A stretch of 64,000 nucleotides of DNA from Candidatus Latescibacterota bacterium (lineage in GTDB: Bacteria > Krumholzibacteriota > Krumholzibacteriia > WVZY01): positions 1 to 64,000 of the forward strand of contig CAWBQK010000013.1 in the NCBI GenBank assembly GCA_963791045.1, read 5' to 3'. The position numbers and the translations under genes are program-made. Shown in pieces: positions 5,333 to 48,909 of the stretch; the stretch's first letter is position 1; each line of letters opens with the position of its first letter. A model generated the notes under the pieces. The model was not told the DNA's origin. It saw nothing but the letters and a program-made list of their open reading frames with translations, and made no database searches.

Positions 5333-5629
5333 ATGAAAGTCATCGCCGATCTGACCGTTATCCCCATCGGTGTCGGGATCTCGTTATCAAAGTACGTCGC
5401 GGCCTGCGAAAAGGTCCTTCGCGACGCCAATCTGGAAATCAAACTCCACGCCTACGGCACCAACATCGAAGGCGAGTGGGACGAGGTATTCGCCGCGGTC
5501 AAACGCTGCCACGAAGTGCTCCACGAAATGGGCGCCCCGCGCGTGTCCGCCGTGCTCAAAATGGGAACACGCACCGACCGCGATCAATCAATGGACGACA
5601 AAATAAAAAGCGTCGAAGACAAACTGTAG
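5333..5629 (+). CDS. MTH1187/YkoF-like thiamine-binding family protein (DUF77)
   Basis: VIPIGVGISLSKYVA...HAYGTNIEGEWDEV...GAPRV...GTRTDR...KIKSV; AGGAGG RBS. Confidence 0.9.
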   Translation: MKVIADLTVIPIGVGISLSKYVAACEKVLRDANLEIKLHAYGTNIEGEWDEVFAAVKRCHEVLHEMGAPRVSAVLKMGTRTDRDQSMDDKIKSVEDKL

Positions 5630-5765
5630 CGACACTCAATAATATCAAAGTTATGATTGCGTGGAGCACCCTGAGCTATAGTCCGCTTGCGAAGGGTAGC
5701 GACACTCAATAATGTCAAAGTTATGATTGCGTGGAGCACCCTGAGCTATAGTCCGCTTGCGAAGG
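5626..5765. repeat. 70-bp tandem repeat x2 (one mismatch), containing CACCCTGAGC...GCGAAGG
   Basis: Units at 5626-5695 and 5696-5765; a related copy lies at 15985-16066. Confidence 0.9.
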
Positions 5766-15916: not shown

Positions 15917-16066
<150 letters not shown>

Positions 16067-32672: not shown

Positions 32673-33122
32673 TCATCTTTTTTCCTTCAGACTCCGCCTC
32701 ATATCGCGGTCGGAGTCTCTCTTGGCGATATCCCGCCGTTTGTCGTACGAGTGCTTCCCCTTGGCCAGGGCGAGCTCCACCTTGGCGACGCCCCTGTCGT
32801 TGAAATAGAGTTTGAGCGGGACGAGAGTCAGCCCCTTTTCCCTTATCTTGCCGATCAATCGTCTGATTTCTTGTTTGTGCAGCAGCAACTTGCGGTCACG
32901 CCGCGGATCGAGCTGTGTCTGCGAGGTATGCGAGTATGGGCTGATGTGAAGCCCCTTGAGAATAACCTCGCCCCGCTCGACGGTGGCGTACGTATCCGTG
33001 ATATTCGCTCGGCCCTCGCGGAGCGATTTGACTTCGGTCCCCATCAGCGAAATACCCGCCTCGACCTTCTCGACCACAGTATATTCGTGACGTGCCTTCC
33101 TATTGGATACGATTACTTTCAT
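32673..33122 (-). CDS. smpB: SsrA-binding protein
   Basis: NRKARHEY; GTEVKSLR; RKLLLHK; KGKHSYDKR. Confidence 0.98.
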   Translation of the reverse strand: MKVIVSNRKARHEYTVVEKVEAGISLMGTEVKSLREGRANITDTYATVERGEVILKGLHISPYSHTSQTQLDPRRDRKLLLHKQEIRRLIGKIREKGLTLVPLKLYFNDRGVAKVELALAKGKHSYDKRRDIAKRDSDRDMRRSLKEKR

Positions 33123-33413
33123 GCACACATTATGGTGACCACCAGGCGGCTGTGCAAGGGTCAAATTGCCAACCACTTAAACTACTCCGCGAATTATCCA
33201 TTATATATACTACGAAATCATCTCTCCGCGAAATACCCGCCAGAATCAACGTATCACCATGTTATTTCGCGCGTTACGAGCTGTGACGCCCTTCCCTGCG
33301 GCGGCCTTGCCCAATAAAAAATGACGCCCCGCCGGCGACGACCGCCATTGTATATCATTATATAACCACATCTTATAGCGGCCACCACAAGATGTTGTGG
33401 GTCAAATCTCCCA

Positions 33414-33442
33414 TTGACTTTTATGGGTGTCTCCTCTATTCT
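33414..33442 (+). promoter_or_regulatory. Sigma70 promoter of tRNA-Leu
   Basis: TTGACT-N17-TATTCT. Confidence 0.6.
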
Positions 33443-33535
33443 GCCCCCTTAGAAGTCGGCGGTCGTTTGAATAATATTCGATGACATATTGCCTGCTTCT
33501 TCACTGCCAAAACCTTCCGACTTTCAAAACTGAAT

Positions 33536-33622
33536 GCCGAAGTGGTGGAACTGGCAGACGCGCTGCGTTCAGGGCGCAGTGAGGGAAACCTCGTGGGGGT
33601 TCGAATCCCCCCTTCGGCACCA
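33536..33622 (+). tRNA. tRNA-Leu(CAG)
   Basis: 87 nt with long variable arm, anticodon CAG and CCA end. Confidence 0.97.
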
Positions 33623-33645
33623 GTTATTTGAAAGGTTTGAGGTTA

Positions 33646-33688
33646 TAAAACCCTTCGGCGGAAAGCTCCAACTGCCGAAGGGTTTTTA
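33646..33688 (+). terminator. Intrinsic terminator after tRNA-Leu
   Basis: AAAACCCTTCGGC...GCCGAAGGGTTTTT. Confidence 0.8.
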
Positions 33689-33729
33689 TGTTTTCATCCG
33701 GCGCGGGATTACGTCGGCGCGGTCTTTCG

Positions 33730-34042
33730 CAGGCCCTCGCTCAGGACGGCGCGGGTCCTGTCATCGGCCTCCCCGGGCGTGCTCGCTTACGCTTCGTGCG
33801 GATAACTGATTCGCCGATAGTAGCACCGGTCACGAAACGACCACTCGTTCGTCGACAAAAGCGCCGTGCACGCCACCCGCACTCCGCGACGCTGCGCCGC
33901 CTCGGGGGCCCCGCCGATGCCACCCGCGCCTTCTCTTGACGAGGACGGTGCGGTCTTTCGAAGGGCCCTTCCGCGGGAGCGAGCGAGAATCCACTGTCGG
34001 CGAAGCCGACAGTTAGTCGAGCGAAGCGGAGCGAGGGCCCTG
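33730..34042. repeat. GC-rich palindromic (REP/MITE-like) intergenic element
   Basis: Outer inverted repeat CAGGCCCTCGCTC / GAGCGAGGGCCCTG; inner arms 33747-33788 and 33890-33931 match 47461-47544. Confidence 0.6.
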
Positions 34043-34160
34043 GAATGACCGCACGGCCGAATATCCTCCGATGGCGCTTGACGGGTTCGAAGGTCACGCC
34101 CTATTTTTAGGACTTCGGACGCACTACGTTACAAACAAACAAACCCGCTCAATAGAGAGG

Positions 34161-35042
34161 ATGTCCATGCGGCGGTTCATATGGTTGTTGTTGCTTCCCG
34201 GTTGCCTCTGGCTTCCCACGATCACTGGTTGCTCGACGACGGGCTTTGCCGTCGGCGCGATGGGACCTATTCTCGACAACACAAAAGTGGCGGCGCTCGC
34301 CTCGAGCGACATACGCACCTTCAACGCCGCCGTCCCATCCAATCTCATGCTCCTCGAGGGGCTTATACAGACCGAACCAAAAAAGGCCGACCTGCGGATC
34401 ACCGCGGCCATGATGTACTTCAGTTACGCATTCACATTCGACAACCCCGCCGACGAAGGGTATGCATCGACGCTCTACCTCAAAGGGTTCGAACACGCGA
34501 AGGTGGCGCTCTTCAAAAACAAGAAAATCGCCGCCGCGTGGAACAAACCGTTCGATGATTTCGCCGCCGCGACGGCCGAATTGACCGTGAAGGACATGGA
34601 GGCGATCATGTGGACGGCGGCTAACTGGTCGCAGTTCATCGCGCTCCATCTTGATTCCACAAAAGTTTTGACTCAAATACCCAGAAACACGGCACTTATG
34701 GAGCGTGCGGCCGAGCTCGACGGAACGTACTTCGAGGGCCTGCCGTATATACTACTGGGCAGCCTGCACGCGTTTCGTCCCCAGTTGATGGGAGGTGACC
34801 CGGAAGCCTCGCTGGCCAATTTCGAGAAAGCGTTCGCGGTCTCCGATAACCGTTTTCTGCTTTCTCATTATCTGTACGCGAGATTCTACTGCCATCGGAT
34901 GCTCGACGATGTCCAGTTTGAAGAAAAGCTCGAGTATGTGCTCGAACAATCGGATGACATTCTCCCCGAGTACCGGCTTCTGAACACCATCGCCAAACAA
35001 AAATCGGCAATCCTGTTGAAGGAGAAAGATGAACTTTTTTAG
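34161..35042 (+). CDS. TRAP transporter TatT component (TPR-like lipoprotein)
   Basis: Lipobox-like ITGC; P.LMGGDPEAS..FEKA; LLNTIAKQK; first gene of the dctPQM operon. Confidence 0.82.
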   Translation: MSMRRFIWLLLLPGCLWLPTITGCSTTGFAVGAMGPILDNTKVAALASSDIRTFNAAVPSNLMLLEGLIQTEPKKADLRITAAMMYFSYAFTFDNPADEGYASTLYLKGFEHAKVALFKNKKIAAAWNKPFDDFAAATAELTVKDMEAIMWTAANWSQFIALHLDSTKVLTQIPRNTALMERAAELDGTYFEGLPYILLGSLHAFRPQLMGGDPEASLANFEKAFAVSDNRFLLSHYLYARFYCHRMLDDVQFEEKLEYVLEQSDDILPEYRLLNTIAKQKSAILLKEKDELF

Positions 35043-36105
35043 ACATACACATCAAAGGACACGCATCATTGCCGCCGTCGCCGCCCTCGCGCTCGTCGTT
35101 ATGGCGGGGCTCGTCATCCAGACCGGGACGACGCACGCAAAAAAAGCCAAACCGGATACGTACATCAAGTTCGCCACGCTCGCGCCCGAGGGCAGCACGT
35201 GGATGAAGGTCATGCACGCCATCGACGATGATGTCCGTGCGGCCACTGAAAACCGTGTCGGTTTCAAGTTCTATCCCGGCGGTGTCCAGGGTGATGAAAA
35301 AGACGTCTTGAGAAAGATCCGAAACGGACAAGTTCACGGCGGCGGGTTCACCGGTTTCGGTCTCGGCGCGGTCGCGTCGGAATTTCGCGTGATCGAGCTG
35401 CCTTTCATGTTCAAGGATTACGCGGAAGTCGATTACGTTCGCGGCGAGCTGGACCCCTACTTCACCGAGGTGTTCGCCGACAAGGGGTACGAGTTCCTCG
35501 GCTGGGGAGACGTCGGCTTTGTCTATCTGTTCTCGAATACGCCGATACGGTCGCCGGAAGAACTCCAACGTTCAAAGATGTGGACGTGGTCGGGCGACGC
35601 GCTCGCCGAAATATTTTTCAACGCGTTCGATGTATCGCCAATCCCATTGGCGCTTCCCGACGTACTGACATCGCTGCAGATGGGTGTCATCGACGCGGTG
35701 TACAACGCGCCGCTCGCCTGCATCGCGCTCCAGTGGTTTACCCGGGTCAAATATATGACCGACGTCCCGGTCACATACGGGTTCGGCGCACTACTCGTGT
35801 CCAAAAAATCGCTCAAGAAGGTCAGCCCCGCCGACCTGGCAACACTCAAAACAATCTGCCGAAAACACTCGGACGCTCTTATCGGCAAGACACGGACGAG
35901 CAATGCGGAAGCCATCCAGGAAATCAAGGATGAGGGCGTCGACATCCTCGAAGTCGATCCCCAGGTCGAAAAGGCGTTCTTCATAAAGGGCCGGGACGCG
36001 TGGACGGAAGGGATCGGTAAACTCTACCCCGAAGACCTGCTCAAACGCGTGACCGTACTCGTCGACGACTATCGGGCGAACCCCAAAGAGGCAAAAAACC
36101 CTTAA
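35029..36105 (+). CDS. dctP: TRAP transporter substrate-binding protein
   Basis: KFATLAPEGSTW; YPGGVQGDE; DVLTSLQMGVIDA. Confidence 0.93.
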   Translation: MNFFRHTHQRTRIIAAVAALALVVMAGLVIQTGTTHAKKAKPDTYIKFATLAPEGSTWMKVMHAIDDDVRAATENRVGFKFYPGGVQGDEKDVLRKIRNGQVHGGGFTGFGLGAVASEFRVIELPFMFKDYAEVDYVRGELDPYFTEVFADKGYEFLGWGDVGFVYLFSNTPIRSPEELQRSKMWTWSGDALAEIFFNAFDVSPIPLALPDVLTSLQMGVIDAVYNAPLACIALQWFTRVKYMTDVPVTYGFGALLVSKKSLKKVSPADLATLKTICRKHSDALIGKTRTSNAEAIQEIKDEGVDILEVDPQVEKAFFIKGRDAWTEGIGKLYPEDLLKRVTVLVDDYRANPKEAKNP

Positions 36106-36114
36106 GGCAAATAC

Positions 36115-36798
36115 GTGGAACATCCAACCATCACGTACATCCTCATTGCCTCGAGCATCGTCGTAGCGTCACTGATCCGCGCCTATCTGGACAAGACGTC
36201 GCGGCTTCGCGGCCTGTTCAGATTTCTCGGTGGTTTTGAAATCACCATCATCGCCTTGCTCCTCGGATCGCTCATCTTTTTTGGATGCCTGCAGATCGTG
36301 CTGCGCAACTTCTGGCACCGCGGCCTGCTGTGGGCCGACCCGTTGATGCGGCACGCCGTTCTCTGGCTGGGATGCCTCGGCGCCGCGCTCGCCACGAGCA
36401 AAATGCGTCATATCAATATCGACGTGTTTACACGTTTCCTCGGGCCGAAGACTCGCGTCTTCCGTGACAAGATCGTTTATCTCGCGACGGCCTTTGCCGC
36501 CTCGATTCTCGGTTTTGCCGCGCTCAAACTCGTCATCGACGAAAAGTCGTTTGGCGAAAAAGCATTCCTCAATGTCGACATATGGGTCCTGCAGGCAGTT
36601 CTGCCGCTGGCCTTTTTTCTGATTTCATACAGGAGTCTCTTCAATACATGGTGTCCGCCCGAGATCAAGCCCATGGAATGGGATGAATTCGGAATCGAGG
36701 TCGACGCAGAGCCCACGCCCACCGGCGCCGACACCGGCGACGTCCCAACAAACGAAGACACGCCGGACGACCCTATCGAGGACGGATCGGAAGACTAA
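36115..36798 (+). CDS. dctQ: TRAP transporter small permease
   Basis: QIVLRN...WADPLMRHAVLW...HINID. Confidence 0.9.
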   Translation: MEHPTITYILIASSIVVASLIRAYLDKTSRLRGLFRFLGGFEITIIALLLGSLIFFGCLQIVLRNFWHRGLLWADPLMRHAVLWLGCLGAALATSKMRHINIDVFTRFLGPKTRVFRDKIVYLATAFAASILGFAALKLVIDEKSFGEKAFLNVDIWVLQAVLPLAFFLISYRSLFNTWCPPEIKPMEWDEFGIEVDAEPTPTGADTGDVPTNEDTPDDPIEDGSED

Positions 36799-38060
36799 TG
36801 GCTATACTGATCGCCCTCATAATCGCTCTTCTTGTCTTATTCGGCGTGCCGTTGTTCGCCGCGCTTGGGGGCATCGCGCTCATCGCGTTCAAGGGCGCCG
36901 AGATCGACATCTCTTCGGTGGGCGTCGCGATGTACACACTCGCCGGGTCGCCAATTCTGATCGCCATACCGCTCTTCACATTCGCTGGGTACCTGTTCGC
37001 GCACAGCAAAGCGCCAGACCGGCTCGTCGCGCTCTCGCACGCATTCTTCCCCGGCGGACTCGCCGTGGTCGCGCTGGTGTCGTGCGCGATCTTCACCGCG
37101 TTTACGGGCGCGTCGGGTGTGACGATCATCGCGATGGGCGGACTTCTCTACCCCGCTCTTTTGAAGGAAGGCTATTCGAAGAAATTCTCACTCGGCCTCC
37201 TCACCGCATCGGGGAGCCTGGGTCTTCTCTTCCCCCCGAGCTTGCCGCTCATCGTCTACGGGTACGTTGCGTCGGTGAATGTCGACGACCTTTTTCTCGC
37301 GGGGCTCGTCCCGGGGATCCTCCTCGTCGGCGTTCTCTCCGTCTACGGCATCCACACGGGGAGAAAGCAGGGCATAAAACGCGACCCGGTATCGCTCCGC
37401 GCAATCATCCGCGCGGTCAGGGGCGCCGCGTGGGAACTCCCGCTTCCCATCATCATTCTCGGAGGGATATACGGCGGCATCATCACGGTAATGGAGGCGG
37501 CGGCGATCACTGCGCTTTACGCGTTTGTCGTCGAAGTCCTGATCTACAGGGACATCCCGCTCGGCAAGCTGCCCCGCATCACGGCGGAGAGCATGACGCT
37601 CGTCGGCGGCATCTTGATAATCCTTTCGTGCGCCATCGCGCTCACCAATTATTTGATCGACGCCGAAGTACCGCTGCTGATACTCGACTGGATGAAGTCA
37701 TACATTTCGAGCAAGTACACATTCCTTCTCCTGTTGAATGTGTTCCTGCTTATCGTCGGCTGCCTGATGGACATTTTCTCAGCGCTCATCGTCGTCGTCC
37801 CCTTGATCGTCCCCGTCGCGCTCGGGTTCGACGTTCACCCGGTCCACCTGGGAATCATCTTTCTCACCAATCTTGAAATCGGGTATCTCACACCGCCGGT
37901 GGGGCTCAATCTCTTTATATCGTCATACCGATTCAACCAGCCGGTGGTGTCGCTCTATGTCGCGAGCATCCCGTACCTCCTCCTGCTGCTTCTCGGCCTG
38001 TTGATCATCACCTACGCGCCGCTACTGAGTCTCTTTCTCGTCAATCTCTTCGGCGGTTAG
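36798..38060 (+). CDS. dctM: TRAP transporter large permease
   Basis: AIPLFTFAG; TGASGVTI; GSLGLLFPPS; IGYLTPPVGLNLF. Confidence 0.95.
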   Translation: MAILIALIIALLVLFGVPLFAALGGIALIAFKGAEIDISSVGVAMYTLAGSPILIAIPLFTFAGYLFAHSKAPDRLVALSHAFFPGGLAVVALVSCAIFTAFTGASGVTIIAMGGLLYPALLKEGYSKKFSLGLLTASGSLGLLFPPSLPLIVYGYVASVNVDDLFLAGLVPGILLVGVLSVYGIHTGRKQGIKRDPVSLRAIIRAVRGAAWELPLPIIILGGIYGGIITVMEAAAITALYAFVVEVLIYRDIPLGKLPRITAESMTLVGGILIILSCAIALTNYLIDAEVPLLILDWMKSYISSKYTFLLLLNVFLLIVGCLMDIFSALIVVVPLIVPVALGFDVHPVHLGIIFLTNLEIGYLTPPVGLNLFISSYRFNQPVVSLYVASIPYLLLLLLGLLIITYAPLLSLFLVNLFGG

Positions 38061-38080
38061 ACGGCCGCGCCCCGGACTAC

Positions 38081-38119
38081 AAGAGGGCCCCGGCGATTTG
38101 CCGGAGCCCTCTTTTTTTT
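38081..38119 (+). terminator. Intrinsic terminator
   Basis: AAGAGGGCcCCGGC-gattt-GCCGGaGCCCTCTTTTTTTT. Confidence 0.85.
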
Positions 38120-38145
38120 GAAATCATCCCACGCGCCCGTGCGAT

Positions 38146-41100
38146 TTATTTCAACATCACCATTTTCATGGTCTGGTTGAAGTTGCCGGCGCTCAGCCTG
38201 TAGAAATAGACTCCCGTCGAAACGCGCGAGCCATTTGCGTTTGTCCCGTTCCATTCAGCTGTGAACTGCCCCGGGCTCTTGACCTCGTTGACCAGTGTTT
38301 TGATCTGCCGTCCCTGGACATCGAACACGACGAGCGACACATGTGTCTGCGCCTTGATCTCGTAGCGGATTCGTGTCGTCGGGTTGAACGGGTTGGGATG
38401 GTTCTGATAGAGCCGATCGGCAAACGCGGCGATGTCGTCACCGATTCCCGTCGCCACGGGCTCAACCGGTCCGCCATACCCGCCGGCATAGGCGAGCGAG
38501 TTGACGGCGGAGACCTTGTAATACGTCCCCGCAACCGCCGTGCCGTCATCGTACACCGTGTCCGGCGCCGTCACCGTTGTGATGAAGTTGGCCGCCGCCG
38601 GTATAAACGATCCATCGATGTCCTTGTAAACCGCGTAACTCGAGACGTTGGCCTCGGGGTTCGCGCTCCACGAGATGATCGCATTCCCGCCCGCAATGGC
38701 CGCCGAGAGATTCTTTACATACACGGGATGATCCATGTCGAACGCGTGCGACCCGTAGATTCCCATGTCGGCGGGTGAACCGTCGGGGTCGTCATAGGCC
38801 GGATCGGGGTTACCGCGATCGATTTCGGGCGAGTGCATTGCCAGATGGAAATCACCCGACGCCGGATCGACGAACAACGGATCCTGCGATATGCAGCCGG
38901 CGCCCGGCGTCACACCGTTGTAGTCGGCGGTGGAACTGTTCCACACATTGCAGTAAAGCGGCGTGGGCAGGGTCGTCCCACTGCAGGAGAGACCGAACCC
39001 CGTCGAGTTCGCGATGATGTTGTTCATCACCGAAATCGCCGTGTTGGAGAAATACGCGCCACCCACGGAGGAACCGGTGTTGGCGTTCATGGTGTTGCCG
39101 TTGAAACTCCCGCTGGTCGCATTCAACATATAGCTGGCCGTTCCGCTATTTCCAACCCAGAGGTTGTGATTGACGAAACTCTCGGTCGACGCGAGATAGG
39201 CGCCGCCGCCGATCATTCCAGTATTGTTGAGTATCTTGCAGCCCGTCATCGACAAGGTCGAGCTTCCGTCGGTATCGATTCCGCCACCAATGGTCCTGGC
39301 CTGGTTGTTGTCGAGCGTGACGTTCGTCATTGTCAGATGCGAACCTTCCAAATGGATTCCGCCACCATATCCAATCGTTCCCGCCAATCCGGAGATGTTG
39401 TTCGATACGACATCGCCGTCCATCGACACACTGGTTGTGTTCTTGATATAAATACCACCGCCATATCCCATGGAGGAAGCCACGTCAGCCGAGTTGGCGT
39501 CGATGGTGTTGCCGGAAAATGTCGCCGACGTTGAATTGCCGACGTATACGCCGCCGCCCTTGGCGTTCTCCGCGGTATAAATCAGATCGTTGTTTTGAAT
39601 GGTGCAGCCGGTCATCGTCAGGCTTCCGCCGTCGACAAAAATGCCGCCGCCCTGCCCGGCACCGCACAATTCTATCTCCGTATTGACCAGCGCCAGCGCG
39701 CTGTTGTTCGCATAGATGCCACCGCCCGCGCCATACTCTCCGTTGTCGGCGTCGCAGTCGTGGATATACGAGTTGGCGATGGTCGCCGTCGCATTGTAGA
39801 CCCAGACACCGCCTCCGTACTTGCCCGCGATGGGCAGAAGCTGCGAGCCACCGGTGCCGTTCATAATTTCAAAACCGTCGAGAACCGATTCGGCCGTCGT
39901 CGCCGGTCCGATCTCGATGTTGCCGGTCAGGTCGAGAACGGTCTTGCCCGACACGAGGTCGCGCGAAGAGAATCCGCTGTCATACGCGCCGTACATCTTG
40001 ACCCCGTCGGCGATCGTGATATCGACACCGGTGTAGGTCGTCGAGGCGACGAGGAGCGAGTCCCCCGCGCCGGTTGCGCTTATCGCGTCGGCGAGTGTGT
40101 TCGCCGCATTGGCCGGTGTGATGTACGGAAAAACCCCGGCGCCCGTGGGCGAGAGGTAGTGTTTCGTCGTCTCTTTGACCTCGAAACCGTTCGAAATTAC
40201 GGCCGACTGAAGATCGCGGTTGAACACCTCGATGTCGCGGAGTCCAATCGCCGCGTCGTTATCGATGGTTATCGTGGCCTCGAATGTGTTGGCGTCGATA
40301 AAGGTCAAGGAGTTGAGCGTGATGTCGGGACCCATTTCAACATAGGCGCCGTGAACAAAGTTGGATCCCGAAATGGTGATCGTGGTGGTGACACCCTGGA
40401 AATCGTTGTCGGGGGCAGACGCCGAGGCCGTCGGCGCACTGAGAGGCGCCGGCGCGCACCCGTTGCCGTCCCACCCGATTTGCGCCGGCGTGTACTGGCA
40501 GAGACCGAATGCGTTGTTGTTCATCATGCACGACCCGTGCGGATACCCGTCACAGTTCTCGCAGTTACGATTGAGCTCGGTGCCGCAGGTACAGCCGCAG
40601 CCGCTCTCCGCATACTCGTCGCACGCATTGAAGATATGCCCCGTCTCGTGCGTCAAGACCTGACTCGGATCCCACCCATAACTCCTGGAGAGAAGTTGGG
40701 TAAAGGGCCCACCGAGATAGGCCCACGCGGAGCCGCCGAACAGATACTGCGTCGCGGCGGGCGGCGGGTTGTAGGCGACAAATGCCGAGTACGCCCAGTC
40801 CGTCCCATAGTTCGAACGTTGCCATGTGTTAAAAGAGTTGGTGTTTGTAAATACACTGGTCGATCCAAAACCAAAATTGTTCATAATCGGTTGATCCAAT
40901 CGTTCGACGTCTTCGACGTCTGGATGATCGGCTCGTACCCCTGCTGACAGCGCGAATCGGTTCCCGGGTAGAAGCGAACGAGGAAGGCATTCCAGCAGTC
41001 GAAGTTTTCATACGCCTTCGACGTCCACCAGGCAAGCCCGGTACTCGCACTCATCACGTACTCGTCCATGTGTTCCTGCGACCAGGTGTAAATGTCGGGA

Positions 41101-41759
41101 TCGATCGTTCCATTGCTTTCAACCATGAAGATCGACAACGAAATCGTTCCCGTCATTCTCTCGCTGTTGGATCCGTACGCCGGGGATTTTTCCAAGAGAA
41201 TCCCGCGATCCTTGAGCTGCGCTACATTGAGGCCGACAGACTCGAGGTTCTCTATATAATCGTCGTAATTAAAATCAGGGCGTTGTCGCGCGTCATTCGG
41301 TATCGGTTTGCGGTCCAGCGCCTCGGTGGTGGACATTTCCTCAAAATGTTTCTTCTGTACATCGCCGCGTGCCGCCGCGTTGAAGAACTTCACCATCGCG
41401 TTCGATTGAAAATCGTCGGCCTTCACCTCGCCCGGCAGCACTTCGGTGTCATAAATTGCCGTGATCCCCGCCTGACCGATCAGTTCCGCGCGGCGGTCAA
41501 ACGGTATCCACCCGAGTATCATTGACGGGGGCGACATGATCGCCACTCGTCCGCCGTGGGACTGGATGGTTGCGCGTGCGTTGTGAAGACTCGAGATATC
41601 GTCCGTGTCGAGAACGACAAGTGTGAAGCCGTCGAGCCAGGACATGTCGTTGGATCCGTCGATTTTCGCAGAGGTCGCCGGGGCGGCGATGAGCGAGATA
41701 ACAAGAGCGACGGAGAGAAGCGCGGCAAATTGCGATGTCATTCTGACCTCCAGATGCAA
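38146..41759 (-). CDS. Secreted zinc metalloprotease-like protein with Ig/TIG, right-handed beta-helix and FlgD-Ig domains; frameshift near 40885-40900
   Basis: ORF 40881-41759 carries the signal peptide and ORF 38146-40899 the rest. HETGHIFNACDEY zinc motif, downstream CMM Met-turn, GGG[IV]Y/N-ladder repeats, QNHPNPFNP tail. Confidence 0.8.
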
Positions 41760-41978
41760 AAAAAGCGGCGGGGAAAACGGGTGCGTGAGTCATTGAGTCA
41801 CTTGTGAAACAATGCGCAATAACGGGCAATGCCAATCCCCTTTTTCCCCATCGCGTGCGCGGAAAAAGCAAGATTATCGCCAACAACCGTTTGCCCCCGC
41901 TCGTCACGCGGGTGCTTTATCTCTTTCAATATTATATATCAATTACGGGTATAGACACAAGCGATGGCTGCGGGCTGA

Positions 41979-42007
41979 TTGACTTTTGGCTCCAGTTGCT
42001 GTAAACT
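41979..42007 (+). promoter_or_regulatory. Sigma70 promoter
   Basis: TTGACT-N17-TAAACT. Confidence 0.55.
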
Positions 42008-42128
42008 ATATCCATAGCCTTGTCAACGATTTAGGGCAAAAGGCTTAAGAGAGTTGTGGGTCCGCCCGCCTGTCACGGCTCTCAATCGATTTCCGCATGC
42101 CCTGCGGAGGAAGAGACGCGAGGATACT

Positions 42129-44792
42129 ATGCGCTGCACCTTGGCTGGACGTCTCGCCTTCTGTCTCGTGGTGCCCCTTATTCTGGGGGCGCTCGCGGCT
42201 TCGGCCACGTCGGCTACGCCGACCGGCCGGGACAACGACGGGCTCGTCCTCAACGATTCGGTCTACGCGGCCAACCATCCCAAGCTGCTCTATACCCAGT
42301 CCGATATTCCCGCGCTCTATAATAAGGTCCGGGACGGCGGCAATGACGACCTCGCGTATTCTTTTATCCGGATTGTCATCCAGTACATTTACCCCGGATC
42401 GACAACCGAAGAACTTCTCGACGACAACTACGGTATTTCGACATTCCCAAATCTCGGCATGGGGTCCGCCCTCGAATCACCACCCGACCCGGCGCCATAT
42501 CTTCTCGGCCATGACCTCACCGTCTACATCGCCGACACGTGGGGCCCCGATTTCGACAACTTCAACAGTGCGCTCCGTCTTCGCTCGCTGGTTCTCGGTT
42601 ACGACATGTTTTTTGGCGACGCCGAAGAGAGCGAGCGGACGTACATTCGTGACGAGATCGAAAGCTACATCGATTTGTTCTCGACCGATGACGACTATGA
42701 CATCTGGTCGTACCGCCCTTACTTAAGCAATGTGAGCGTGATGATTGCGTCGTCGCTGGGGCTTGCGGCGATTTGTCTCGATGGCGAAATCGAACCGTAC
42801 AAAATTGAATACGCGATCGACCGCGCCGACTACCTCATCCACACATGGCTCAAATATCATGTCGACGAAGAAGGCGCATACAATGAGGGAGCGTTGTATG
42901 GGGCCTGGAGCATGCGGAATCTCATCTACTACTTCTGGGCGCGTCTTCGCTACGACGGCTATGATTTCTCGCAGGACGGCAAGATTCGCAATATGGAGAA
43001 ATGGTTCGCATTCGAACTTCACCCCGACGGCGGGGCAATGACGAACAACATCCAGGACAGCGAATACCTCGAGCACCCTCTATCGCAGCATACGACATAC
43101 TTCGACTGGGCGCAGACCGCGTGGGGCAGCGGACTCTCCGCGTACATTTGGGATCATGTCGCGGGTATATACGGGCACAATTCCGGGACGGAGGCGGACA
43201 AGGCGGGCACGGTGCTCTGGAACCAGAACCTCACACCGATTCAACCCGAAACAGTTTTGCCGGCGAGCGTCGTCTGGGAACACAGGGGACTCTACTACTA
43301 TCGGTCGGGTTGGCCCGTGGGCGCAACATCCGGTGATGTGATGTTTAGTTTCTATTCGGGACAGTTCCAGGGCGGTCACTCCCAGGAAGACCAGAACCAG
43401 TTCACGCTTTATGCGTACGGCGCCCACTTCGCCATGGACCACGGTTCGGGAACGCTACCGAGAGAGAGCGAAGCGCACAACATGGTGTTTATCGACGGGG
43501 CCGGGCAGCATTTCTCGGGCGCGTCAATCGGCACCGACGGGCGGTTTCGGACGCACATCGTTAACGATTTCTCTGACTACCTTCTCGGCGATGCGACATC
43601 CGCTTACACCACCCACAGCCCCCTCAACAACCCGTCCTTCCCCTTCCCCAAAACCGACTGGTCGTGGGGTTACCAGGGCGCCAACCCCGTCGACCACGCG
43701 TACCGCTCGGTCTTTGTCGTCCGCGACCCCGGCACACCACCGTACTTCATAATTATCGACGACATCGAAAAGGACGGGGCTCCGCACACCTACGAGTGGC
43801 GGCTGCACACCGGACGGGACAACACGATCGACACCACGTCGAATCCGATCCACATCGCGGACGGCAACGCGTTCCTCGATATCCATGTACTCAATCCGGC
43901 GTTCAACCAGCTCCAGAAATCGATCGCTCATTTCAATAATCTCGTCCCCGACCCGGACTCGAATATTCTGTCGCTGAGGACGACGGCCGTAAATCCAATG
44001 TTTGCCTTTGTCCTGATCCCGGGGGACGCGGGCGTTGTCCCGCCCGTCGTCACCAGCACCACCGAATCGTGGGGTTTCAGCGTGGCAGTCGAATGGCCGA
44101 CGGGCGACACCGATCATCTTCTCGTCAACACATCCGGCGGCATCGTGTCGCACACGCTGCCGTCAGGCGCGTCGAATCCCGCGGCAGTCTGGGACATAAC
44201 AGACGAAGACATTGAGACCGACGCCGGTCTTGCGCTCGTCCGCTTTAACGGCGGCGGCGTGGAGAAGTATTCGCTCATCGACGCAACCACTTTCAGCGCG
44301 AACGGCACCAACTATGTCACGATAGGAAACGGCCCAATGACGATCGCGAATTCGGGCTCCGCGATAAACATGGACCGTTATGAAGCCGACTTCTCCCTCT
44401 ACGCTCCGGGCGTGACCGATGTTTTCTACAGGGGCCAGAGGATCTATGTCAACGAGGTGGGTGGGTATCTCACGCGCGACACCGCGGCGTCGGTTGATGA
44501 TCCCGTCGTACCGGCGCACACCATCAATGTGGCCTCGTACCCCAACCCTTTCAACCCTTCGACAACCATCGCGGTCGAGATACCGGCGCCATCTAATGTA
44601 GAGGCCGCCATCTTCGACACGTCGGGGCGCCTCGTCAAACGCTTGTGGAACGGACCGCTCTCCTCGGGTGTGCGCACGTTTCATTGGAATGGGGAGAGTT
44701 CAACCGGGGATCGTGTGGCAAGCGGAGTGTACTTCGTAAAGGTGACGGCGGGGTCCGCGTCACGGACCGTCAAGATCACCGTTCTCAAGTAG
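42129..44792 (+). CDS. Secreted heparinase II/III-like polysaccharide lyase family protein with FlgD-Ig C-terminus
   Basis: HPKLLY; GAYNEGALYG; YYYRSGW; GGHSQEDQNQF; AHNMVFIDG; IIDDI...WRLH; SYPNPFNP tail. Confidence 0.8.
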   Translation: MRCTLAGRLAFCLVVPLILGALAASATSATPTGRDNDGLVLNDSVYAANHPKLLYTQSDIPALYNKVRDGGNDDLAYSFIRIVIQYIYPGSTTEELLDDNYGISTFPNLGMGSALESPPDPAPYLLGHDLTVYIADTWGPDFDNFNSALRLRSLVLGYDMFFGDAEESERTYIRDEIESYIDLFSTDDDYDIWSYRPYLSNVSVMIASSLGLAAICLDGEIEPYKIEYAIDRADYLIHTWLKYHVDEEGAYNEGALYGAWSMRNLIYYFWARLRYDGYDFSQDGKIRNMEKWFAFELHPDGGAMTNNIQDSEYLEHPLSQHTTYFDWAQTAWGSGLSAYIWDHVAGIYGHNSGTEADKAGTVLWNQNLTPIQPETVLPASVVWEHRGLYYYRSGWPVGATSGDVMFSFYSGQFQGGHSQEDQNQFTLYAYGAHFAMDHGSGTLPRESEAHNMVFIDGAGQHFSGASIGTDGRFRTHIVNDFSDYLLGDATSAYTTHSPLNNPSFPFPKTDWSWGYQGANPVDHAYRSVFVVRDPGTPPYFIIIDDIEKDGAPHTYEWRLHTGRDNTIDTTSNPIHIADGNAFLDIHVLNPAFNQLQKSIAHFNNLVPDPDSNILSLRTTAVNPMFAFVLIPGDAGVVPPVVTSTTESWGFSVAVEWPTGDTDHLLVNTSGGIVSHTLPSGASNPAAVWDITDEDIETDAGLALVRFNGGGVEKYSLIDATTFSANGTNYVTIGNGPMTIANSGSAINMDRYEADFSLYAPGVTDVFYRGQRIYVNEVGGYLTRDTAASVDDPVVPAHTINVASYPNPFNPSTTIAVEIPAPSNVEAAIFDTSGRLVKRLWNGPLSSGVRTFHWNGESSTGDRVASGVYFVKVTAGSASRTVKITVLK

Positions 44793-45851
44793 GCCAAAAA
44801 AGCCGCCGCGGTCTTCTGTCCCCGCTATGGCATCCGCGGCCGGAAAATCTTCACCAAATATCAATCGAAAATCCTTCATCGTCGTTCTCGCCGTAATTGT
44901 AAATCTACGGAGTTCGAGTCTGTCCCTGTACGGCGCCGTCGTCGCAAATGGCTGGGGGGAGTTCGTTCCCTCCTCGAGCGTGCATGTGGCCTCGAAGCCC
45001 GCGCTCATCGCCACACTGTCGAGCACGGCACTGGCAAATCCGTACGGCCATGCGAGAAAACGCGGTTCCACGCCGAGATGTTCTTTTATCAACGCGTGGG
45101 ACGTCTTTAAATCCTCGCACACCATTCCCTGCCATGACGACCCACCCGGGGGATCGTGCAATCCAAGGCCCGCGGCGACAAACACCGGGATCATTCCATG
45201 GCGTGTCTTGACTTTGCGGTGAAGATCGTGCGAGTGCGACTGGATGGAGAAAACACCCGACTCCTGCATGGCGCGGAGTTCATCCCATGTCAAACAGTCC
45301 ACCCGGTCCCACTTCGTCCCCACCTTCGACGTCACGACAAAGAGCGTCGCTTTGAAACCATACCGTTCGAGTATCGGCCGCGCAAATTCGAGAGCGCTGC
45401 GGTCGCCGTCATCGAATGTAATCACCACCGGCTTTGGCGGGAGTCCCCCGTACCCCCGCTGCCACGCGATGAGTTTGTCGAGTCCGACCGACTCGTATCC
45501 GTTCTCCGCCAGATACGCCAACTGCTTTTCGAACGAGCAGGCGGACTGTGTCCATACGTCAACGTTGCCGAGAAGCGGCAGATTCAGAAAGAGCGCCCCG
45601 AGGATTTTGACAAAACCAACACGGCGTTGTCTTCGCGCGCAAATAGTGATGACAGAGGACGGGGACGCCGCCGAGCTCCGCGCCGCTATTGATTTCGCCG
45701 ATATGTCGCGTAAAGTTGTGTCGTACGGGGCTTGCGTTTGCGGCGCCAGGCACGCCATCACCATGAGCGCGACAACAAACAAGAATGCCGACCCAGCCCC
45801 GATCAGCGACGCGGTTCGAAGTTCGGTCATTATAATGGAACGGCGTGTCAT
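44760..45851 (-). CDS. Polysaccharide deacetylase (CE4, PgaB/IcaB-like)
   Basis: VITFDDG; IQSHSHDLH; AWPYG. GVPVLCHHYLR appears in an alternative frame near 45650, suggesting compensating indels. Confidence 0.85.
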   Translation of the reverse strand: MTRRSIIMTELRTASLIGAGSAFLFVVALMVMACLAPQTQAPYDTTLRDISAKSIAARSSAASPSSVITICARRQRRVGFVKILGALFLNLPLLGNVDVWTQSACSFEKQLAYLAENGYESVGLDKLIAWQRGYGGLPPKPVVITFDDGDRSALEFARPILERYGFKATLFVVTSKVGTKWDRVDCLTWDELRAMQESGVFSIQSHSHDLHRKVKTRHGMIPVFVAAGLGLHDPPGGSSWQGMVCEDLKTSHALIKEHLGVEPRFLAWPYGFASAVLDSVAMSAGFEATCTLEEGTNSPQPFATTAPYRDRLELRRFTITARTTMKDFRLIFGEDFPAADAIAGTEDRGGFFGLLENGDLDGP

Positions 45852-45853
45852 GT

Positions 45854-47647
45854 CTAACGCGTCCTCGCAAAGTCGATCGTCATAAATACGCCTTCGGACC
45901 GGAACCCGTCGGGAGAGGTGACGCGCGACCCCGATTTGTAATAACCGGTCCGAACATAAACGCCGCCCACCACACGGACACTGAGTTCTCCGTCAAAAGA
46001 GCCGATGCTCGCCCATCCGGCGCCGCTGTCCCTCTCTGTGCCAAAACGGCCTTCGATCCTGAGCCGGACACGCCGCCCCAGGTCGGTCACATACCGCAAC
46101 CCCAGGTAGAGATTCGTATAGTTTTCGGGGTTGAAATACCCGTTGCTCTTTTCCTCGGCAAAGTTGAAGTAGTCGATTCCCTCGATGAGTGTGGTCTGGT
46201 TAAAAAACTTGTACGGCACGTGGACCGGAGGCGTCCATTCGCCGCGGTGAAGCAAGGCGAACCGCGAGTTGCCGTCGCTGTAGTTCGAAAACCTCAGTTC
46301 CCAGAACGTCACCGCCCGATGCGCGACTCGCCAGTCAAGCCCGGCGTTGAAATTCGTCACGGATATCCCGCGATACACCGGTTCGGGGATCGTCATGGTT
46401 TGTCTCGACGACCCCAGGTCAAAGCGCACCCAGTCGCGTGGCGTCAGCGTGAAGTACACGTCCCAAAGCATCAGGTTGAAATCACTCACCGCCTCGGTGG
46501 ACGGCGGAACCGTTATCGCGTCAAACCGGTTCACCTCGTAACCGCCCTTCAGCGACATCATCAGCAGCTCAGAGAATCTGTGTTCGAGCGACAGCCAGAA
46601 CTGGTCGCGGCCGATATCGGGAACGCCGTCTTTTTTGAGCGCGCCGTGAACGTAGGACGCGCTGAATTCGGTGCTGTACCCGGACGGGAACGACGCCGAA
46701 AAGAGCGTTCGTCCATACGACCCGTCATCGGTGTTTTCGGAGTAGAGATATGACACCGACCCGTTGGGCTGCGGCGAGTTTTCGATGGTTTGCTTCAATT
46801 GCTCAAGGTCGTCGGAAGGCTCGGCATGTTGAATCGCTTCGATCGCGAGATCCGCGCGGCCCATCCAGAAAAGCGACTCGGCGAGTCCTTTTACCGCCTC
46901 GGTATTGCCGGGATGGTCTTTGAGGACGTCCTCGTATTGAGCGCGGGCCTCCCTGTGCCTGCTCGACCAGTTCAAAATTTGCGCGCGGCCGAGCCGTGCT
47001 TCCATATTTTTGGGATCGCGTTCGAGGAGATAGTCGTAAATCTCCTCGGCGGTCTGCCGGTCTTCTTGCCACGCCGCCACCCTCGCAAGTCCGAGCAAAA
47101 CATACGGCCACTCTTTCTTGCTCTTTGGAAGTAATTCGAGATAGTAATCTTCGGCGTCGTAGAGATCGTCCGCCCAACTCAACGCGCGTGCGATCCCCAT
47201 GCTCGCCTCGATGTCGCCGGGGTGATAGGAGAGGTACCTGGCATACCAAACAATCGCGGAATCTGGAACCTCGGCCCATGTGTACTGATGCCCGAGTTCG
47301 AGGGACACGGTCGATTCGAAATCAGAATCGAGCTCGAGCGCCTCGAGGTACAAGCGAATCGCGTCGCGGTGCCGATCCTCGCCCGCCGCCGTCCGCGCTT
47401 CCGCGAGCACTGACCCGGCTCGGGCTCTGTTTTCGGCCGCAGTACTCGCGCCTGACAACCCGGCACGGGTTCTGTCATCGGTTTCCCCACGCGTGCTCGC
47501 TTCGCTCCGCCGCTCTGGGGGCCCCACCGATGCCACCCGTGCCTGTTCTGTTCGCGCGAACGTGGCGCCGCCCGCGCCTACTATAAATAGCAGCAGTAGT
47601 GCGGCAAGGCGCGTGGCGGTGGGTGATTTCAATTCGAACATTGTCAT
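45854..47647 (-). CDS. TPR plus outer-membrane beta-barrel protein (PgaA-like export protein)
   Basis: ATGA overlap with the GT2 stop; signal peptide; TPR repeats (ARALSW, ARVAAW, AQILNW); beta-strand-rich C-terminus with GYFNPE. Confidence 0.78.
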   Translation of the reverse strand: MTMFELKSPTATRLAALLLLFIVGAGGATFARTEQARVASVGPPERRSEASTRGETDDRTRAGLSGASTAAENRARAGSVLAEARTAAGEDRHRDAIRLYLEALELDSDFESTVSLELGHQYTWAEVPDSAIVWYARYLSYHPGDIEASMGIARALSWADDLYDAEDYYLELLPKSKKEWPYVLLGLARVAAWQEDRQTAEEIYDYLLERDPKNMEARLGRAQILNWSSRHREARAQYEDVLKDHPGNTEAVKGLAESLFWMGRADLAIEAIQHAEPSDDLEQLKQTIENSPQPNGSVSYLYSENTDDGSYGRTLFSASFPSGYSTEFSASYVHGALKKDGVPDIGRDQFWLSLEHRFSELLMMSLKGGYEVNRFDAITVPPSTEAVSDFNLMLWDVYFTLTPRDWVRFDLGSSRQTMTIPEPVYRGISVTNFNAGLDWRVAHRAVTFWELRFSNYSDGNSRFALLHRGEWTPPVHVPYKFFNQTTLIEGIDYFNFAEEKSNGYFNPENYTNLYLGLRYVTDLGRRVRLRIEGRFGTERDSGAGWASIGSFDGELSVRVVGGVYVRTGYYKSGSRVTSPDGFRSEGVFMTIDFARTR

Positions 47648-48909
47648 CCGACCTCTCTCACCGGTTTCCAACGCGCCGGTTCGCCGTTGTTCCGCGTGCG
47701 CAGCAAACCGCCCGGCGTCGACACAAAAGTCACCGTCGCCATCAACATCCAATAGATCAGCGGGTAGAGCACGGCGATACTGTAGTACCACGGCAGGTGG
47801 CGATCGTAGCGCCTGTCGAGGAGCACGCCGACAAACAGTTGCACGAGACACATCGTCCCGATAAGCATCCCCCAGTAGTTTGGAATCGGAGAGGCGCCGA
47901 TCGGGGGATACCCCGTCGCGTACGACACCGCCCACAACACGACGAACACCACGAAGCAGTACGCCCACAGAATCGACAGATACGATTCGATGAGCACGGG
48001 CGAGAGCCGCCGCGCCTTCCAGGAAAGCGTTTCCTTTCCGTGCCGGCGAATGACCTGGGCGAGACCCGTCGCCCACCGCCGTCTCTGCCGCCACAACCCG
48101 CCGAGACTCACGGGCACGCGCATCCACACAATCGCGCGCGGCTCGTAACGGATGTCATAAAACTTGAGCTGGAGTTTCCACGTGAGGTCGATGTCTTCGG
48201 TGGACATTTCGGGGCTGAACAATCCCGAGTCGAGAAGCGCGTTGCGGTGAAAAGCGCCGACAACACCGCTCATTGTAAGGAGCTTGCCCCACACGCGAGC
48301 GCCGCGTCGCTGGAGCGACACGATCGACGCGAATTCAATCGCCTGCATCTTGGCAAGCAGGCTCCGTCGGTTCAGGACACGCGGGTTCCCCGTGACCGCC
48401 CCGACTCGCCCCGCGCGAAAATGCGGCACCATCGCGTTAAGGATGCCCGAATCGGGGACGGCGTCGGCATCGAGGATGAGCAGGATTTCGCCATTTGTCA
48501 GCGGGATGGCATCGTTCAACGCCATCGCCTTGCCTTCGTTCTTCGACTTGTCGATAAGACGAACCTTGCCCGCCTGGGCAAATGGTCGGATCTTGTCGAC
48601 GGTCGCATCCGTCGATCCATCGTTGACGATAACAATTTCAAAATTGGGGTAGTCGATCTTCAAACAACCGATGATCGTGCTAACAATATGTTCTTCCTCA
48701 TTGAAAGCCGCCATCAGCACGGTCACAAACGGGGTGTAGCCGGTGTCGCCGGGCGGCGGCACGCGGCGTTCGCGTCTGAAGAAGAACACGACGCTCGATA
48801 TCACCCACAACGAACTGCTGAATATCGGATACCACGCAAAAAAGATGAGCGCGGCGAGATACACCGGGTTCCGCTGAATCGATTCCATAAGTGTCGGGAT
48901 ATCGATCAC
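47644..48909 (-). CDS. pgaC: Poly-beta-1,6-N-acetylglucosamine synthase-like GT2
   Basis: AFNEE; NDGSTD; GKAMALN; DAD; AVTGNP; TEDIDLTWKLQ; QRRRW; PLIYW. Confidence 0.85.
   Translation of the reverse strand: MIDIPTLMESIQRNPVYLAALIFFAWYPIFSSSLWVISSVVFFFRRERRVPPPGDTGYTPFVTVLMAAFNEEEHIVSTIIGCLKIDYPNFEIVIVNDGSTDATVDKIRPFAQAGKVRLIDKSKNEGKAMALNDAIPLTNGEILLILDADAVPDSGILNAMVPHFRAGRVGAVTGNPRVLNRRSLLAKMQAIEFASIVSLQRRGARVWGKLLTMSGVVGAFHRNALLDSGLFSPEMSTEDIDLTWKLQLKFYDIRYEPRAIVWMRVPVSLGGLWRQRRRWATGLAQVIRRHGKETLSWKARRLSPVLIESYLSILWAYCFVVFVVLWAVSYATGYPPIGASPIPNYWGMLIGTMCLVQLFVGVLLDRRYDRHLPWYYSIAVLYPLIYWMLMATVTFVSTPGGLLRTRNNGEPARWKPVREVG

Follow-up and report, generated by a model that had tools for sequence, protein, structure and literature searches.

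A hairpin repeat family with an in-frame copy in a PgaA-like gene of a Candidatus Latescibacterota genome and relatives in distant phyla

Rickettsia palindromic elements (RPEs) are described in the review PMC10969869 as small palindromic repeats that lie between genes and also in frame within unrelated genes, where they add a peptide that orthologs lack, with a mobilizer that is unknown; for some RPE families, nearly half of the copies are in genes. [quoted passage not shown] REPINs, a type of repetitive extragenic palindrome (REP) element, are characterized in PMC3116915 by conserved ends, a variable hairpin spacer, common compensatory changes, a mostly extragenic location, and clustering with other palindromes. 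Here we analyze a window of 64,000 nt (contig C13, positions 1 to 64000, of a metagenome-assembled genome, or MAG) in which a hairpin repeat at 47461-47544 lies in frame within P0001, a gene for a PgaA-like outer-membrane protein. We conclude that this repeat is probably a copy of a non-autonomous, RPE/REPIN-like hairpin DNA element that has come to occupy new sites both here and in many other genomes.

The copy in the PgaA-like gene

The host genome (G000) comprises 3.66 Mb in 21 contigs with ~56% GC, and the nearest named relatives of its proteins are from Candidatus Latescibacterota MAGs. An earlier note on this DNA had described 47461-47544 as a palindrome whose arms resemble those of an intergenic copy, and its arm identities are exact: 47461-47502 matches 33747-33788 at 36 of 42 positions, and 47503-47544 matches 33890-33931, also at 36 of 42. 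Both arm matches were also recovered as window repeat families D10 and D5. The compensatory differences that the note had listed are present as well (GGCaCGGGT/ACCCGtGCC versus GGCgCGGGT/ACCCGcGCC, and CATCGGt/aCCGATG versus CATCGGc/gCCGATG). When folded as single-stranded DNA, 47461-47544 forms a hairpin of -22.0 kcal/mol (z -3.3) on the + strand and -26.3 kcal/mol (z -4.5) on the - strand. Its parts are as follows, those below the first line being taken from the fold and from alignments of copies.

47461..47544, + (element orientation), antisense to the gene: hairpin repeat copy (sequence, fold, and covariance model)
47462-47470 / 47535-47543, +: S1 stem
47471-47475 (TCTGT) opposite 47533-47534 (CC), +: internal loop
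47476-47482 / 47526-47532, +: S2 stem
47485-47489 / 47516-47520, +: S3 stem
47521-47525, +: C-rich bulge, GCCCC
47490-47515, +: apex

A covariance model (R1), of a kind that the earlier note had proposed, was built from 44 diverse copies; it matches the family and scores the 47461-47544 copy at 68.3 bits (E 1.2e-11). A blastn search of the 3.66-Mb genome, also proposed there, found many relatives of the copy, the closest of which, C1:120192-120281, is 92% identical over 90 nt (E 2.9e-29). The similarity of 47461-47544 to other copies is far beyond chance. Because the flanks CCC and TGTTC are also common to the window copy and its closest relative, the unit is taken to be 90 nt rather than 84 nt.

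47459..47548, -: 90-nt unit (30 codons) in common with C1:120192-120281 (blastn, flanks, and same-frame peptides)

Within the open reading frame (ORF) at 45854-47647 (-), the 84-nt segment encodes ARVASVGPPERRSEASTRGETDDRTRA (residues 36-62), and the 90-nt unit encodes EQARVASVGPPERRSEASTRGETDDRTRAG (residues 34-63 of P0001). The gene and its two neighbors are as follows.

45854..47647, -: P0001, a TPR plus 16-strand beta-barrel outer-membrane protein (PgaA-like), 597 aa (translation, Pfam, and AlphaFold)
47644..48909, -: upstream family-2 glycosyltransferase (PgaC-like), 421 aa (Pfam Glyco_tranf_2_3, 1.9e-29)
44760..45851, -: downstream polysaccharide deacetylase (PgaB-like), 363 aa (Pfam Polysacc_deac_1, 2.4e-20)

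P0001 has a clear TPR domain (Pfam TPR_19, 2.3e-15), 16 strands in its structural model, and GT2 and deacetylase neighbors, as would be expected of a PgaA-like exopolysaccharide porin; however, its match to Pfam PgaA_barrel is weak (E 0.0061; 16.2 bits, below the cut-off of 27). The whole of 44760-48909 (-) reads as a pga-like three-gene operon of a GT2 glycosyltransferase, the TPR/16-strand barrel, and the polysaccharide deacetylase. The ATG of P0001 at 47647 overlaps the TGA of the upstream glycosyltransferase gene (ATGA), and the two genes are translationally coupled. The AlphaFold model of P0001 (mean pLDDT 80.5) has a signal helix at residues 9-23, TPR helices at residues 66-289, and 16 strands at residues 295-593, with a pLDDT below 50 for residues 1-20 and 22-66. 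Because of these low values, insert residues 34-63 are predicted to lie in a disordered linker. Translation, Pfam, and the model all agree with the earlier proposal that the copy is in frame between the signal peptide and the TPR domain. The sole signal-peptide-like segment (helix 9-23) is upstream of the element, and therefore translation must pass through the element. The window copy is translated there as ~30 disordered residues (RVAS...DDRTR).

The alignment with orthologs that the earlier note had proposed finds the peptide absent from all 11 aligned homologs (the 12 best-listed relatives minus one 450-aa fragment) and from 18 of 18 orthologous loci. The closest homolog, at 73% identity, is 46 aa shorter than P0001, and the matches at the 18 loci, which are from related genomes, start at query residues 58-97. 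If nothing had been inserted, the stretch would be either ancestral and lost in the relatives or a convergent piece of GC-rich palindromic noise. This could draw on the variable linker length in the P0001 family and on some orthologs of an MMPL transporter, discussed below, that look like deletion derivatives. It is countered by the 90-nt match to a copy in an unrelated gene, by the covariance model score of 68 bits, by the occurrence of the unit dozens of times in intergenic DNA, and by the uniform absence of the peptide from homologs and orthologous loci. The copy census already refutes it, and its probability is close to nil. Because this linker lacks conservation, insertion is proved by how closely the DNA matches other copies rather than by the protein alignment on its own.

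A dispersed family of covarying hairpins

The earlier note had supposed a hairpin family on the strength of two copies, and the host genome bears this out with a dispersed family of 44 5' modules and 37 closed hairpins. In nhmmer searches with profiles of the two ends, the 5' modules were found at E<=0.01, along with 24 3' modules at E<=1. Closure was defined as a 3' arm complementary to the copy's own first 9 bases with at most 1 mismatch; 36 of the 44 5' modules have such an arm 31-426 nt downstream, and the count of 37 comes from adding two closures made by eye and removing one doubtful 426-nt case. Closed hairpins span 31-301 nt and fall into length classes of 31 nt (2 copies), 82-84 nt (7), 92-98 nt (3), 127-144 nt (9), 177-202 nt (10), 240-247 nt (5), and 301 nt (1); copy C15:193567, for example, closes at 143 nt. 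The longer forms are built on the short one, either by extra hairpins nested within its apex or by a second module that precedes the closing arm. The base of the family is conserved and its apex variable. Two family copies are in the window, 47462-47543 and 33748-33930. The latter has the same base as the 84-nt form and additional nested hairpins in its apex.

33747..33931, +: intergenic long copy, a 183-nt hairpin plus one flanking base per side (sequence, census, and fold)
33536..33619, +: tRNA gene ~130 nt upstream of the intergenic copy, given for context only (Rfam RF00005, 46.8 bits)

Crude gene calls from codon usage (2890 calls, together 0.836 of the genome) place 31 of the 44 copies between genes; 9 overlap the end of a called gene, mostly at over-extended start codons, and 4 are classed as inside a gene, although one of these, 11 nt from a called start, is unlikely to be genic. 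The depletion of copies from coding DNA is strong: 3 of 44 lie deep in genes, compared with ~37 expected for random sites, and all three belong to the 82-84-nt class. The 27 closed intergenic copies include 14 between tandem genes, of which 6 share the strand of those genes and 8 are opposed to it, with 7 in convergent and 6 in divergent gene contexts. Genes between host genome copies encode EPSP synthase, PrmC, GyrA, and a Rex-like protein; in genome G001, they include NuoF/G. Many copies in genomes G001, G009, G004, and G035 are within 100 nt of contig ends, and the repeat evidently breaks short-read MAG assemblies. Near one such end (G035:C236:1-400, locus L208) there are five tandem partial copies of the 5' half with ~21-27-nt spacing (CTCGCGGGTCCTGTCATCG...), which are either the product of slippage or an assembly artifact.

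The comparison with RPEs made in the earlier note is borne out by two further in-frame cases in the host genome, which behave as RPEs do. The copy at C1:120195-120276 is antisense in P0119, a 677-aa membrane protein without a Pfam match, shares its reading frame with the window copy, and encodes EQVRVASAGPPERRSEASTRGVADDRTRTG; at the insert site, 6 of 6 aligned P0119 orthologs lack 42-49 aa. The copy at C12:21519-21602 is in sense orientation in P0120, an S8 peptidase of 1273 aa, where it separates the protease domain from the domain that follows, and both of the two closest orthologs lack 31-32 aa there. In-gene copies therefore occur in both orientations, two antisense and one sense, and in 5 of their 6 frames the two antisense copies have no stop codon. 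Copies stand at non-orthologous sites, and there are in-frame genic copies that are absent from orthologs. The copies on G001:C2 that have a tblastn match were rejected as in-gene cases, since they are in a spurious 155-aa frame upstream of another gene.

A further case was found at metagenome locus L216, where an MMPL transporter gene contains the element in antisense orientation, flanked by Pfam domains on both sides, and the element's peptide, RVASGGSPRTEAQPPPAGLPPDDRTR, is in the same frame as the two antisense cases of the host genome. In that antisense frame, the conserved core always reads RVAS...DDRTR. Close homologs of the L216 protein are named Solirubrobacterales MMPL transporters (Actinomycetota). 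Among 15 of 120 listed homologs, hand-picked to span lengths, 9 carry RVAS..DDRTR, with 77-100% overall identity, and 6 lack 20-27 aa at that point. The MMPL insert has therefore persisted through speciation as protein sequence, and it appears to have been partly deleted several times. Further candidate in-gene cases are the long frames that span copies at L221, L224, L230, L236, L253, and L043.

The arm differences that the earlier note had seen between two copies belong to a family-wide pattern of compensatory covariation. In the host genome, 312 of 333 S1 cells are Watson-Crick pairs, with 2 G-T and 19 other, whereas shuffling of partners gives a mean of 273.9 (standard deviation 4.4), and none of 2000 shuffles attains the observed value. 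The S2 stem has 136 of 140 cells Watson-Crick and no G-T, versus a shuffled mean of 108.6, again with 0 of 2000 reaching the observed value. The arm variants GGTAC, GGCAC, GGCGC, AGCGC, GCCGC, GACAC, and CGCGC are each paired with their own complement. In 15 short copies from three genomes, 94.6% of cells pair, versus 37-42% when partners are slid by 1 to 3 columns, and 8 pairs have changed on both sides, a number that 0 of 500 shuffles reach. In the 44 diverse copies, the pairs not fixed by the search pattern comprise 352 cells, with 287 Watson-Crick, 4 G-U, and 61 other; each of the four pair types is found, and one pair reads GC in 17 copies, AU in 15, CG in 6, and UA in 3. The covariation of the stems is strong and almost purely Watson-Crick. 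GGGTCCTGTC and GCCACCC are invariant or nearly so across all copies, including those from other phyla; covariation is seen in S2 and in the outer part of S1, and each lineage has an apex of its own. The single-stranded motifs (the loop CCTGT/CC, the C-rich bulge, and CGTGCTCG as apex word) are unchanged across phyla.

This pattern has to be weighed against the possibility that the hairpins are a functional structured RNA or a protein-binding site in mRNA, acting in stabilization, processing, or regulation, with the in-gene copies incidental. Single-stranded motifs that stay invariant across phyla while stems covary would be expected of such an RNA, and there are copies between housekeeping genes (mnmE/mnmG, gidB/yidC, and pheS/pheT). 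However, only 4 of 352 cells in the diverse copies are G-U and 2 of 473 cells in the host genome are G-T, and a near absence of G-U pairs is unusual for RNA helices. There is also no orientation bias relative to flanking genes (6 same, 8 opposite), in-gene copies are in both orientations, nested and truncated copies look like DNA events, and Rfam 15 gave no match on the elements at E<=1 (window 33000-48500) or at E<=10 (13 loci with copies). SRP 4.5S RNA, Y RNA, a CsrA site, an IncP nic site, and Tn3-type inverted repeats were each considered and dropped because their defining motifs are lacking, and they were tested by Rfam scans only. We consider an RNA function unlikely. Because the covariation is confined to Watson-Crick pairs, there is no orientation bias, and genes contain both orientations, we infer that the hairpin acts at the DNA level. 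Among the non-Watson-Crick stem cells of the host genome, ~10 of 23 on the top strand are A-C or C-A and 2 are G-T. The A-C cells would read as G-T wobbles on the bottom strand, which also has the more stable fold, and this hints, weakly, that folding takes place on the bottom strand.

Distribution and the search for a mobilizing enzyme

The earlier note had called the family lineage-specific, and this is wrong, since it is found in 34 of 151 sampled genomes of the phylum, in distant phyla, and in metagenomes. By family within the phylum, the numbers of genomes with R1 matches are as follows.

With the element: f1, 7/9; f2, 12/17; f5, 14/33
Without the element: f3, 0/60; f4, 0/5; f6, 0/10; f7, 0/9; f8, 0/1; f9, 0/6

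Copy numbers outside the host genome are lower bounds, with 28 or 150 candidates scored per genome. Several phylum genomes have at least 15 to 25 copies each. At least 54 copies are on G208, a closed Solirubrobacterales chromosome of 2.4 Mb; the counts are at least 30 for G212, 9 for G210, 2 for G211, at least 16 for G015, and at least 6 for G010. Copies were confirmed by R1 in three Solirubrobacterales MAGs, Candidatus Krumholzibacteriia, Candidatus Marinamargulisbacteria, and Candidatus Omnitrophota, and in records labeled "uncultured Actinomycetes" and "delta proteobacterium." A bipartite exact pattern with 25 fixed bases found 39 loci in JGI metagenome contigs with a local GC of 0.38-0.73; these are 31 distinct sequences, all of which (31/31) fold as hairpins on the same base. 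One low-GC group is on at least 4 large contigs of a single project, whose MnmE is 36% identical to that of the host genome and at most 52% identical to any named protein. The same bipartite core had 0 matches in viral contigs. In two unrelated lineages (L218/L228 and L219/L240), the hairpin lies in an origin-proximal cluster (mnmE-mnmG; gidB-yidC), a placement that may be a coincidence.

Two uses of an exact 14-mer were abandoned. As a phylum census it found 3 rich genomes, versus 34 of 151 by the covariance model, an undercount that comes from the demand for exact identity, and in genome contigs it gave mostly chance single matches among the matches listed. When the 14-mer loci were scored with the model, there were 13 real hairpins among the first 100 and 1 to 3 weak matches among the last 21. 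A phmmer search with the 30-aa peptide against 1.84 billion representatives had 0 matches at E<=0.001, for which the query is too short to give evidence of absence. In searchable literature, the 14-mer has no match and shorter strings match primers only, and no title or abstract on dispersed repeats in Latescibacteria was found.

The earlier note had suggested a RAYT (REP-associated tyrosine transposase) or other HUH enzyme as a partner, and this does not go with the repeat. Under such an explanation the hairpins would be a REP/REPIN population moved by a domesticated RAYT (TnpA-REP, a Y1 HUH enzyme), the gene for which is missing from the incomplete MAG, and the architecture is indeed REPIN-like, with conserved ends, a variable hairpin spacer, compensatory changes, a mostly extragenic location, and clusters with other palindromes. 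However, the Y1 transposase family (PF01797) has 0 matches in G000, G001, and G035 and 0 matches in the closed or near-closed, repeat-rich genomes G208, G015, and G010. Of 208 phylum genomes, 27 have PF01797, of which 2 are among the 34 element-positive genomes (a weak match in G028 and a broken gene in G075) and 25 are among the 174 others. A cognate RAYT gene typically has the repeats on both sides. None of the three Y1 genes in G210 and G211 has a hairpin anywhere in its 3.3-kb locus. A GTAG-type 5' tetranucleotide is a REP feature, and none was present in the inspected flanks. A RAYT-driven REPIN population is largely refuted, and we regard it as highly improbable.

A classical MITE, that is, an internally deleted insertion sequence (IS) with terminal inverted repeats (TIRs) that is moved by the DDE transposase of its parent IS, is also very unlikely, although the 9-bp complementary ends GGCRCGGGT/ACCCGYGCC are readable as TIRs. 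There is one rve-type transposase (PF00665) in the host genome, and there are DDE_Tnp_1 (PF01609) genes in G001, but the DDE families show no pattern common to the repeat-rich genomes. A target-site duplication (TSD) was seen neither at any of 13 inspected full copies nor at any of the 3 in-gene copies. Variation and covariation are found at the outermost bases, and the inner loop is invariant, which is the opposite of what is expected for TIR tips that are cleaved. Moreover, no pair of 5' and 3' modules encloses an ORF in the host genome, a result limited by the 80.9% completeness of the MAG and by a survey of four transposase families plus RVT_1; the genes between or beside copies in G000, in G001, and at the metagenome loci are housekeeping genes. 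There is no transposase among 75 ORFs beside metagenome copies. The enzyme survey comprised six families, among them PF01797, PF01609, PF00665, PF07282, and PF00078, and in none of the five genomes tested was there a match to TnpB (PF07282) or reverse transcriptase (PF00078).

The window also has other repeats. A second, unrelated palindromic repeat adjoins the intergenic family-1 copy, and an arm related to it is at 33712-33742.

33932..34062, +: copy of the second palindromic repeat (inverted repeat I7 and blastn)
C13:329391, C6:161986, and C18:104636, among others: second-family copies elsewhere in the host genome (blastn)

This second family is ~100 nt long (GACGGTGCGGTCTTTCGAAAGGCCC... 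with an inverted partner) and has 27 further blastn matches in the host genome, ~9 of which directly flank family-1 hairpins, several directly 3', while the rest stand alone. Together the two families form a BIME-like mosaic, like the mosaic REP clusters of enterobacteria. At 5626-5765, a 70-nt unit is tandemly duplicated with 99% identity, and a third copy at 15983-16052, ~10 kb away, is 71% identical (D3). Seven repeats at ~156-nt spacing in 13474-14451 encode WGDxDxDGDLDL-like motifs (D1, D2), which look like those of an FG-GAP/calcium-binding repeat protein. Finally, 15432-15659 and 38195-38413 are long imperfect inverted repeats 22 kb apart (I1, I2). The second of these is at the 3' end of a gene at 38149-40194 (-), a paralog of the S8/beta-helix protein P0120, and the pair are probably shared C-terminal sorting domains of opposite-strand paralogs.

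Proposed mechanism and comparison with known systems

The earlier note had proposed a mobile hairpin family that creates new protein sequence. The in-frame addition of ~30 residues stands; mobility is inferred from presence and absence in orthologs and from copy number, not observed. We propose that new copies would arise via a single-stranded DNA hairpin intermediate, with a trans-acting enzyme recognizing the invariant base, consisting of GGGT/ACCC, the CCTGT/CC internal loop, and the CATCG/CGATG stem. This enzyme would not be a RAYT/IS200-type Y1 transposase. In-gene insertions would mostly be removed by selection, and the surviving ones would be short, stop-free, and a multiple of three in length, in linkers or loops. 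More tentatively, and with less confidence than we have in the spread of the element itself, this could be an undescribed cross-phylum class of hairpin mobile DNA, with an invariant, attC-like folded base (GGGT, the CCTGT-CC loop, and the CATCG stem, plus a C-rich bulge) as the substrate of an enzyme that recognizes single-stranded DNA and is not a RAYT, TnpB, or reverse transcriptase, and with a nearly stop-free core that may be a recurrent source of disordered linkers in envelope and membrane proteins of several phyla.

Several observations weigh against the spread of a hairpin DNA element. No mobilizing enzyme was found in the families surveyed, and no excision or insertion event was seen, as no contig of four public runs bridges 47461-47544; the public runs have only small shares (at most 0.20), with no RNA run listed, and the contigs of these four are short pieces that are uninformative on an empty allele. 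The nearest relative of P0001 has only 73% protein identity, so that an empty site is unreadable at the DNA level, and the N-terminal linker is in any case poorly conserved and varies in length among homologs. Of the 6 MMPL orthologs that lack the peptide, 5 keep a DRTR-like remnant, and for such orthologs later internal deletion is an easier reading than an empty site. A core that is single-stranded and conserved across phyla would also fit a cellular function of RNA or DNA. The host genome is a MAG with 80.9% completeness and 5.8% contamination, its gene calls are crude, and the copy numbers elsewhere are minimum values.

In-frame palindromic insertions are best known from Rickettsia, and here they are in uncultured sediment bacteria and soil Actinomycetota, with a single repeat family involved, the folded core of which is conserved across phyla and absent from Rfam. 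If the element is mobile DNA, it points to a hitherto unrecognized hairpin-recognizing enzyme, which could be sought by comparing closed genomes that carry the repeat with those that do not. The repeats also add non-homologous stretches, which can mislead gene calling and ortholog alignment.

Like RPEs, the element has in-frame, peptide-adding insertions, in three genes of the host genome and in one Solirubrobacterales MMPL gene. Its hosts are Latescibacterota, Actinomycetota, and others, whereas RPE hosts are Rickettsia, the two being compared by description and not by sequence; in addition, only 3 of 44 copies are genic here, and one conserved core extends across phyla. The element works like an RPE and is not filed as one, since the host taxa differ. 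Like REPINs, it is a multicopy, mostly extragenic (31/44), covarying hairpin that clusters with other palindromes. In contrast to REPINs, it is not accompanied by a RAYT and has in-frame genic copies, and its core spans phyla, while REP families are usually species-specific. It is also short and open-framed and makes in-frame fusions, as intragenic MITEs do, but no TSD, conserved TIR tips, or parent IS was seen for it at the copies and flanks inspected.

In geometry the element is similar to attC sites: in both, the base is paired, an asymmetric unpaired spacer leads to a second stem, and there are bulged bases and a terminal structure whose length varies widely. This likeness would suit recognition as folded single-stranded DNA. 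The core sites of attC, however, are RYYYAAC/GTTRRRY, at cassette ends next to an integron integrase, while the element ends in GGCRCGGGT/ACCCGYGCC, lacks RYYYAAC/GTTRRRY, and is dispersed between housekeeping genes without cassette arrays. The element resembles RPEs and REPINs in behavior and attC in geometry, and it has the defining features of none of them.

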